From NCBI RefSeq assembly GCF_013167455.1, contig NZ_CP038328.1: a DNA stretch of 64,000 nucleotides. One strand, 5' to 3'. Source of the DNA: Escherichia coli O157:H7 (lineage in GTDB: Bacteria > Pseudomonadota > Gammaproteobacteria > Enterobacterales > Enterobacteriaceae). The position numbers are program-made. How positions within the stretch are numbered: position 1 is the first letter of the stretch; every line of letters begins with the position of its first letter. Below, piece after piece: positions 27,001-30,000 of this stretch.

Positions 27001-30000
27001 ATATAAATTAATCAGTAACTTCATAAAAAGAATATAAGAAACAGATAATGCATGTATTTACACACATATCAGCACAATGATAGATTACCACCCCAGAAAC
27101 ACGATAAAGGTATAATTATGGAATTTTCCGTTATTTTTTTCTGGGTTATCACTGGTCTTATTACCATCTTATTCTTAAAATCAATAATAACCGATCTAAT
27201 AAAAAACCTAAACAAAACAGACATAGCGTTATATATATTGGCATTTTTATCAGCCGGATATACATTCCAGTATATTTACAATGACAATATATTTTCAGAA
27301 CTATGGGGAGTTGGCCTGTTTGTTACTCTGATAGTACTGAATATAGTATTTAATCTCTTTTTTAGACTCTTATTCATTCTCTCGAAAATGATATTAATGT
27401 CACGACATATAAGAAAGATGCAAAAAAAACTAAAACAGACGTCTGTGCCTGATTTTATTTATTATTCAATAGAAAAACACAACAAATATCCCATATATGT
27501 ATTACACATGCCATCAAACAATATAATTGAAATAGGCTACAATATAATAAACACCGATCTGGTCATTGGCGAAAAAATTCATTTCAGGACACTAAGCAAT
27601 CGTTCTTTATATTTTAACCTCACCCACCCCCCATTAATCGCCACAATAAAAGATGATGTGTTTTGCACTCTTCATGATTACTATAACCACAATAATGAAA
27701 CGAAATCCACTATTGACAATTACATATCAAAAATAAAGGATAATCATAATACCCCATGGTTATTAAACAACGAAAATGTTCAGGAATAAAAAAAAAGAGA
27801 CAATTCCCGAGATAAAACAAAAGAGCATAAACATATGAACCGGAAATTCTATTTCAAAAATATCCTGTGGGGAATGTGCCCCATTATAATATCCATATTG
27901 CATCTGATATATGACACACCAACAGAAGCATCGATAAAAGTTGACTTATTTCTGATACTCAGTGGCCTGGCCCTTCCTTGTTCAATATACCTGACAAAAA
28001 CAATCACACTAAAATACACATCCATATCATTCTGGAAAAAACCTCTTTTCTGGTCTTATGGTATATATCATTTTCATCTTGTTTATATAATGATATGTAT
28101 AGTTTTAGCAATACCTTCTGCAATTATCGTTTTATTCTTTCACTTTTATCAAAACATCACCAGAAACTGGAAGTGACAACCGCAATAATGAACATAAAAA
28201 GGCAAATCAGAATGGCAGTAAATCAATAAAGTACCATTTCATATGAATCATCAGAAAAACGGTGGACGCGACATCCAGCACGAGGCAAAACACAGCAACA
28301 AAATAAGCCGGATATCGCGCCCTGTACTTTTCTAACTCAACTCCCGGCATTGTGCAAGTTTTAATCGCAGGTGGATTCAGAGCCACGCCCCCATTGATTC
28401 AGCCTGAAGACACGTATATCCTTGGAGAAAGCAGGAATCTCATTGCTGTGAAATTCCTTACAGAATCTTCAGCCCCATTTTATGGGGCTTTTTTTGGTGC
28501 CCCCACGCTGTTACCACACTTTCGGGATGCGAATAAAAAAGCCCACAGTTTTTACACTGCGGACTTTTGTTTTTTCTTTGTGATTTGTGTGCAAGGGTGC
28601 GACTTTCGACCGAACCTTTGGCAACCGGATAGCGGGGACTGTTGTCCCCGCTGCGGTTTCTTACGGTTTACACTGCAAGAACGCCGCAATTTCCGACCAC
28701 ATGAAGCTTACCCTGAATTCACACGGTGATGCGTGTAACACCCAGACGGTCAGCAACATGGTCAGGCATAACATGCCCACAATGATCGTTTTTTGCGGCA
28801 TAGCACTTGCTCCTTTTACAGAGAGGCGCTAACCTTCCACTTGCTGAAGGTAGATGGTCAGGGCCTCGGGTTAACGTTTAAGTTGACTCGGGGCCTTTCC
28901 ACATCCGGCCTTCAGGTAATCCTTCCAGCCGTCAGCCGAAAGGCACCCGCGCGTAATGTACTGGTTTTCAGAGAGGTCCGCAATCTTCCGGTGACGAGAT
29001 CATCTGCACACGCCCCGGTGGGACGGGCTAACGGTATATTCAGGTGCAGGATCTCTCTGTCTGGTGCGTTTTTAAATTGTCAAACGCACCCTGGCGGCAA
29101 AATCAGCCACCTTTTTTCGCATCAACAAAACGCCCAAAACGCTGGGTAAAGCGTGCAACATTACCTTCTGAAGCGACAGTTCTCAGTTTACCTGTATAAA
29201 ACGGATGCGACTTAGAAGAAACGTCAATTGTAACATATGGGTAAGTTACACCATCCAGTTCAATTACCCGGTCAGTTTTGATCGTCGAACCGATCCTGAA
29301 GTACTCATCAATACTGGTATCGTGAAATACTACTGTACGGTATTCCGGATGGATATTCGGTTTCACAACAGTTTTCCCCCTTTAAGTGAAAATTCCGCAT
29401 AAAGGTACATATTCAGACGGTCAGATTCAACTGTCTGTTCTTATAACCTCACTCTCTTTCAGTATTACAATATGTTATATAATTATAAACTGGACTTCCC
29501 GAAAAAATCCATTAAATAAGAAGCGAGCCGTTGCGGAGGCTTGCTCTCTCCTTTAACCTCATGTGCAATATCCGTAACGCGCTCACATAAATCATCATCT
29601 GATAATATAACAACACCCATTATTTTATTCTGACCTAAAAACTTCTTATGAAATAAACGTTTACCCGACGTATCTGATCCCGCTGTTTTTACCTGTATCC
29701 TTTAACATACTTGAGAAGCCCGCTGAAAAAATATACCGTAAAGGCGGTTTCTCTGTCTTCCATAAACCTGTCGGATAAGAAGGGCATTAAATGAAAACCA
29801 AAAAAGTTATGATGATTGCACTGGTCAGCTCTGCGCTGGCTCTTTCAGGATGTGGAGCCATGGGCACAGCGATCAAAAAACGAAATCTGGAAGTAAAAAC
29901 CCAGATGAGTGAAACCTGAGGTAGCCTGAGTTTAACGGACACTCCTTCCTGAAATAGAATGGCATCAGAAGGAGCTAATAATGAGCAGAAAAACCCAACG

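Follow-up and report, generated by a model that had tools for sequence, protein, structure and literature searches.

We examined a 64,000-nt stretch of Escherichia coli O157:H7 DNA (assembly GCF_013167455.1, contig NZ_CP038328.1; hereafter, the window) and focused on a short AT-rich block that carries two open reading frames (ORFs) for small membrane proteins, ORF1 and ORF2. The block has a GC content of 0.307 (about 31%) compared with 0.475 for the whole window, that is, about 17 GC points lower. A preliminary description of this DNA had reported a pair of AT-rich membrane-protein ORFs of foreign origin. We confirmed the pair, and the foreign origin is supported both by this composition and by the location of the block in the cargo slot of a decayed integrating conjugative element (ICE). 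The two genes are co-oriented and separated by a gap of 45 nt, in which a consensus scan detected no terminator-like site on the + strand. The features of the block are as follows.

26950-28250, no strand assigned: AT-rich block with both ORFs, the variable part of the cargo slot (composition profile, GC content, alignment with the sister ICE)
27052-27117, + strand: possible 5' extension of ORF1 (starts of homologs and of the NCBI Prokaryotic Genome Annotation Pipeline (PGAP) gene, Shine-Dalgarno-like motif, promoter-like site)
27118-27789, + strand: ORF1, 223 aa (exact-sequence look-up, small homolog family, AlphaFold2 (AF2) model, ratio of nonsynonymous to synonymous substitution rates (dN/dS), hydropathy)
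27835-28176, + strand: ORF2, 113 aa, with three predicted transmembrane (TM) segments, a divergent orphan homolog of colicin E1-type immunity proteins

By sequence comparison, ORF2 is a divergent and orphan homolog of the colicin E1-type immunity proteins (ImmE1 and those of colicins Ia/Ib, K, 5, and 10; PF03526). It is uncharacterised and already annotated, the exact protein carrying the name 'colicin immunity protein' in public records. When ORF2 was compared with Pfam PF03526, a score of 15.9 bits was obtained (E 0.012). In a tblastn search, it was aligned with 329 plasmid records annotated 'colicin E1 family microcin immunity protein', at 24-32% identity and over 83-96% of its length, the best match showing 32% identity with an E value of 2e-4 (7.3-Gb database). 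Profile comparison by hhalign of ORF2 variants with five plasmid immunity proteins gave a probability of 98.2% (E 3e-14), and the alignment ran end to end over 106 of the 113 columns. The motifs Y(Y/F)xK..WG, P(C/F)(S/A), ALK.T..FW, and (L/S)xP are common to ORF2 and the plasmid proteins. Moreover, the hydrophobic segments of ORF2, at residues ~7-28, 36-54, and 82-100, and its length of 113 aa agree with a family of proteins of ~110-120 aa with three TM helices. The homology that assigns a protein to the E1-type immunity family was thus found over the full length of ORF2. The preliminary description had seen no recognisable domains in the two ORFs, which is wrong for ORF2 given this homology. 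It had also proposed a toxin/immunity role: the immunity part is borne out for ORF2 by Pfam, tblastn, hhalign, and its public name, but the toxin/immunity pair is not.

In the E1-type family, the canonical immunity gene is convergent to the colicin gene and lies between cxa and the lysis gene; three reference homologs of ORF2 are convergent to colicin-like pore-former genes. In contrast, ORF2 is chromosomal, lies in an ICE-derived island, and is co-oriented with an unrelated membrane gene, and we found no adjacent convergent gene for a pore-forming colicin. With two colicin-like pore formers, from Serratia and Hafnia, as tblastn queries, no colicin remnant rose above the noise level, either within 26000-30000 or across the full 64-kb window. 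A remnant downstream of ORF2 was considered and rejected, tblastn giving only noise and the 59-aa minus-strand ORF at 28207-28386 having no Pfam match. Elsewhere, genes of the ORF2 family either neighboured a colicin gene or stood by themselves, and none of them was next to an ORF1-like gene. The ORF2 lineage is isolated, because a search of 5.8 billion proteins returned only six clusters, all of them close E. coli copies (91-100% identity over the aligned part), and no relative of intermediate identity. In PHROGs, ORF2 matched only phrog_22982, a group of unknown function (E 9e-5), which may be a phage-borne branch of the same immunity family.

Orphan immunity genes against pore formers are common on E. 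coli plasmids, according to a survey restricted to plasmids and to genes sharing more than 99% identity with an immunity protein whose cognate toxin is known (PMC12546727). We also observed orphan E1-type immunity homologs in Klebsiella. Such a gene, adjacent to genes for an integrase and a YafO toxin, is present on non-mobilizable plasmids of ~110 kb (248 records; locus L004, 3998-4357) and in three phage genomes of equal size (PQ492289.1, MZ779062.1, and CP058330.1). Like the orphan genes of E. coli plasmids and of these Klebsiella phage-plasmids, ORF2 is toxin-less and borne by a mobile element, and the same benefit is proposed, namely protection without the cost of a toxin. Unlike the orphan plasmid genes, it represents a deep-branching lineage without known toxin, located in a chromosomal island.

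ORF1 has no family match in Pfam, NCBIfam, PADLOC, or PHROGs. Its distant homologs, as well as the PGAP gene, begin at the position equivalent to 27118 and not at 27052. An AAGG Shine-Dalgarno-like motif is present 7 nt ahead of 27118, and a promoter-like site at 27057-27086, which is a consensus match only, would initiate transcription within the 5' extension. The ORF1 family is small. Each member is 6-21 GC points below its own flanks, and a Pfam scan run member by member (31 sequences) gave only scattered hydrophobic noise. No phage homologs were found, and on 72,556 plasmids there were none except in three records carrying the same island. Hydropathy predicts TM helices with a basic stretch after TM3. 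An AF2 model computed from the 31 sequences reached a mean predicted local distance difference test score (pLDDT) of 82.8, whereas an earlier model from four close sequences (pLDDT 44.5) was unusable. ORF1 belongs to a small, horizontally spread, fast-diverging family of predicted inner-membrane proteins with a conserved and probably cytoplasmic α/β domain. In the deepest comparison, dN/dS was 0.23 for the soluble domain versus 0.53 for the TM region.

Three other assignments concerning ORF1 were tried and rejected. The first was a ubiquitin-like domain, for which a PDB profile search gave an E value of 0.0024 to polyubiquitin: each unit scored only 2 bits (i-Evalue ~1400), and the total score is an artefact because nine tandem repeats add up. 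The order of strands and helices that we read from the AF2 model also differs from that of ubiquitin. Residues ~150-168 of ORF1 (window ~27565-27621; family consensus KKFYxKTLSGR) closely mimic the ubiquitin β1-β2 hairpin QIFVKTLTGK. The second was a fused or duplicated E1-type immunity domain in the 3-TM region (hhalign probability 0.3%). The third was a tandem ORF1 paralog in the locus L027, where the neighbouring 213-aa gene proved to be unrelated.

ORF1 and ORF2 are both real genes, intact and under purifying selection. Of the 5426 complete E. coli genomes, 588 carry the pair, among them members of serotypes O157, O111, O145, and O103 and some enterotoxigenic strains (ETEC). The pair is largely clonal, 571 of the 589 matching E. 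coli records being at least 99% identical. The diverged copies (L015, L016-18, and L019-20) are 79-86% identical to the window for ORF1 and 93-96% for ORF2, and both frames are intact in all of them. The dN/dS values were 0.36-0.69 for ORF1 and 0.26-0.36 for ORF2, the counts for ORF2 being small. Two identical copies of the island are present in strain EDL933. The ORF1-ORF2 region was also detected at 100% identity at 119302-120357 of NZ_CP124742.1, a 212-kb record labelled as an EDL933 plasmid, which probably represents a segment of the chromosomal island deposited under a plasmid label; an excised form or a misassembly are alternatives.

The co-occurrence of the two genes was then followed in other genomes, as had been suggested earlier together with the idea that they form a two-gene module of the toxin/immunity, abortive-infection, or holin-like type. 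They occur together only where ORF1 is at least 78% identical. In the sister element, present in 36 E. coli genomes, the ORF1 homolog is 41-43% identical and the next gene encodes an unrelated soluble protein of 105 aa (L005 6750-7067, + strand; L007/L008 981-1298). This replacing gene was considered as another type of immunity and rejected, having no Pfam or PDB match. When nine distant ORF1 homologs (20-33% identity) were examined, none had an ORF2-like partner; eight lie among chromosomal genes, and the contig of the ninth, 1.2 kb in length, shows too little context for a judgement. Several of them are clear single-gene islets between housekeeping genes, for example argA/recD (Serratia), after rplS, infA/CRISPR-Cas I-F, and beside efeUOB/phoH. 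The homolog of L027 (6001-6648) adjoins a type I-F CRISPR-Cas locus (7237-12648) and stands between infA and csy4, a defence-island-like setting seen in this single case. PADLOC returned no match for ORF2 either. Weak, noise-level matches to Phage_holin_3_6 were obtained for three of the 31 ORF1 family members and none for ORF1 of the window, and no lysis or endolysin genes were found near ORF1. A toxin is unable to persist alone, yet the distant ORF1 homologs are solitary; therefore, a toxin/immunity pair is not supported. ORF1 and ORF2 are independent cargo genes of the ICE slot, and the proposed module dissolves outside the closest relatives.

The slot itself and the features that surround the two genes are the following.

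26095-26936, no strand assigned: left boundary of the slot, non-coding DNA common to related ICEs (blastn)
28471-28489, + strand: terminator-like GC-rich hairpin followed by a T-run, the first + strand site 3' of ORF2 (consensus scan only)
28661-28801, - strand: Hok/Gef family gene (PGAP; HOK_GEF Pfam match in L019)
29103-29366, - strand: right boundary of the slot, a paralog of type B ribosomal protein L31 (83% DNA identity to L005)

In a blastn comparison with the sister ICE L005, the segment 26095-26659 was 86% identical (L005 4931-5496) and 26855-26936 was 82% identical. Positions 26937-29109 could not be aligned to L005, while the flanks are 82-86% identical. The non-coding stretch upstream of ORF1 is conserved ICE DNA, possibly a regulatory or recombination site. 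In relatives that have decayed less, the slot is part of an ICE, with an integrase-domain gene on one side and hok, the L31B gene, and traG/traU on the other; proteins that PGAP names 'integrating conjugative element' proteins are also encoded there, and their TIGR037xx families typify ICEclc/PAPI-1-like ICEs. The tellurite/urease island of the window, OI-43/48, evidently derives from such an element by decay. The decay of the conjugative backbone is seen here from traT, the gene of the surface-exclusion lipoprotein, of which only a fragment for the N terminus is left (PGAP pseudogene, 29791-29919, + strand), and from the truncated transposase and autotransporter genes that follow it. Of the genes of the element, ORF1 diverges the fastest: L015 and L016 share 78% identity in ORF1 and 95-100% in TraG, hyp133, and hyp121, and the corresponding values for L015 and L005 are 41% and 68-88%. 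This pattern fits that of a gene in conflict, for example, an immunity or exclusion gene.

Altogether, we favour, as the fairly probable explanation, a variable cargo slot of a decayed ICE (OI-43/48 backbone) with two independent accessory membrane-protein genes, of which ORF2 is an orphan E1-type immunity gene. Immunity proteins of the E1 type obstruct the colicin channel in the inner membrane through helix-helix interactions, and ORF2 presumably works in the same way. By analogy with this family, it would be a protein of three helices embedded in the inner membrane and would block the channel-forming helices of one specific pore-forming colicin as it arrives; the window does not encode this colicin. 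The cell would then be protected without paying for the synthesis of a toxin. ORF1 would not be the toxin partner of ORF2; we infer that its role would most likely be protective, either immunity to a membrane-acting attack or exclusion of incoming DNA. That it represents a new exclusion or immunity family is doubtful.

Several observations weigh against this explanation. ORF2 misses the curated models, its 15.9 bits lying below the PF03526 gathering score of 25 and no relevant NCBIfam match being obtained. Characterised immunity proteins share only 24-32% identity with it, and it has no known cognate colicin. RefSeq/PGAP contains no coding sequence for ORF2 in EDL933 (NZ_CP008957.1); this is an annotation gap, since the exact protein is named elsewhere, the frame is intact, and dN/dS is ~0.3. 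Producers of colicins Ia and Ib inhibit O157:H7, EDL933 included (PMC6723558), and these two colicins are therefore unlikely to be the target of ORF2. ORF2 could also be a silent relic. Finally, conservation in ORF1 is stronger in the soluble domain than in the TM region, a pattern not expected for an immunity protein whose recognition of a pore former takes place within the membrane.

An attractive alternative is that ORF1 is the entry-exclusion factor of the conjugative element, functionally like TraS of F or Eex of SXT/R391, that is, an inner-membrane protein of the recipient that would recognise TraG of a related element as it enters and block DNA entry, ORF2 being unrelated cargo. According to its model and hydropathy, ORF1 would be small and polytopic, seated in the inner membrane with a domain that probably faces the cytoplasm, and in this it resembles such a factor. 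It lies ~2 kb from traG in the intact relatives L015 and L018, a traT remnant is nearby in the window, and its position is kept in two ICE lineages despite a much faster divergence than that of the backbone. Exclusion-specificity genes diverge fast (TraS/TraG, Eex/TraG). ORF1 combines a predicted inner-membrane character, proximity to traG, and hypervariability relative to the transfer backbone, as TraS and Eex do. When TraG of L015 is compared with that of L016, the differences are concentrated in the last ~30 residues, at the C terminus, but this co-variation is slight. Moreover, the family is not confined to conjugative elements: none of the nine distant members is in a recognisable one, eight being solitary chromosomal genes and one being on the short contig. 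There are no plasmid homologs beyond the three records of the same island and no phage relatives, no similarity of ORF1 to the curated exclusion families was detected, and EDL933 harbors the island in two identical copies. We consider entry exclusion unlikely.

A second alternative is that both genes are silent relics without current function, hitch-hiking in a decayed element and retained solely owing to the recent and clonal nature of the island. The near identity of the 571 records is in line with this, as are the heavy decay of the surrounding ICE (IS66 insertions; truncated traT, transposase, and autotransporter genes) and the fact that ORF2 is not called by PGAP. Very AT-rich DNA is also typically silenced by H-NS in E. 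coli. However, each of the diverged copies that we examined, those of intact ICEs among them, has both frames intact, dN/dS is clearly below 1, and ORF1 and ORF2 have not decayed while neighbouring island genes have. This makes the relic explanation improbable. The last alternative, a toxin/immunity, holin-like, or abortive-infection pair in which ORF1 would be a membrane-damaging effector restrained by ORF2, draws on their co-orientation across a short gap free of terminator-like sites, their same unusual composition, their co-occurrence in all 588 E. coli genomes with this version, and the membership of ORF2 in a family that neutralises membrane pores, but it is very unlikely given the unrelated soluble partner in the sister ICE, the solitary distant ORF1 homologs, which a toxin could not afford, the ORF2 relatives found beside colicins or alone, and the PADLOC, holin, lysis, and endolysin results.

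Under the favoured explanation of an orphan immunity gene in an ICE slot, ORF2 adds a deep-branching, chromosomal, and ICE-borne lineage to the orphan pore-former immunity genes. It is carried by ~11% of complete E. coli genomes, mainly of enterohaemorrhagic and Shiga toxin-producing (EHEC/STEC) serotypes. If ORF2 is functional, these pathogens would have a specific protection against one colicin, which bears on the colicin- or probiotic-based control of O157 in cattle and on the debate opposing 'immunity gain' and 'toxin loss' for orphan immunity genes. The ter cluster, located in the same island (terW ~20036-20503), reportedly makes cells resistant to phages and to pore-forming colicins (PMC6955997); its proteins and mechanism are unrelated to those of ORF1 and ORF2. 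The island may combine a general (ter) and a specific (ORF2) anti-colicin determinant. As for ORF1, it offers a clean and tractable case of a fast-evolving membrane protein of a mobile element, and nothing here marks it as unusual in kind.

Other observations were made around the two genes. The hairpin at 28471-28489 is a possible end of a putative ORF1-ORF2 transcript. A second strong terminator-like hairpin is present at 28630-28653 (+ strand), and both hairpins lie just beyond the 3' end of hok, on the opposite strand. The promoter scan returned 14 sites for 8.3 ± 3.3 expected and is uninformative in AT-rich DNA. In the close ICE relatives L015 and L019, the Hok/Gef gene is found alongside ORF1-ORF2, which is not the case in the L005 lineage. 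The L31 paralog (type B, zinc-independent, ykgM-like) occupies the same position in related ICEs (L005 7860-8123, L015 7107-7367, L020 6989-7285; also L007/L008), a ribosomal-protein paralog being an unusual cargo for a conjugative element. Upstream of ORF1, the non-coding DNA contains tandem repeats, one of 150 nt in two copies (87%, 25796-26095) and one of 46 nt in two copies (89%, 26804-26895). Finally, nested IS66-family insertions lie at 23699-25600, between terW and the slot, where an IS682-like element splits another IS66-family tnpC into two pseudogene halves.
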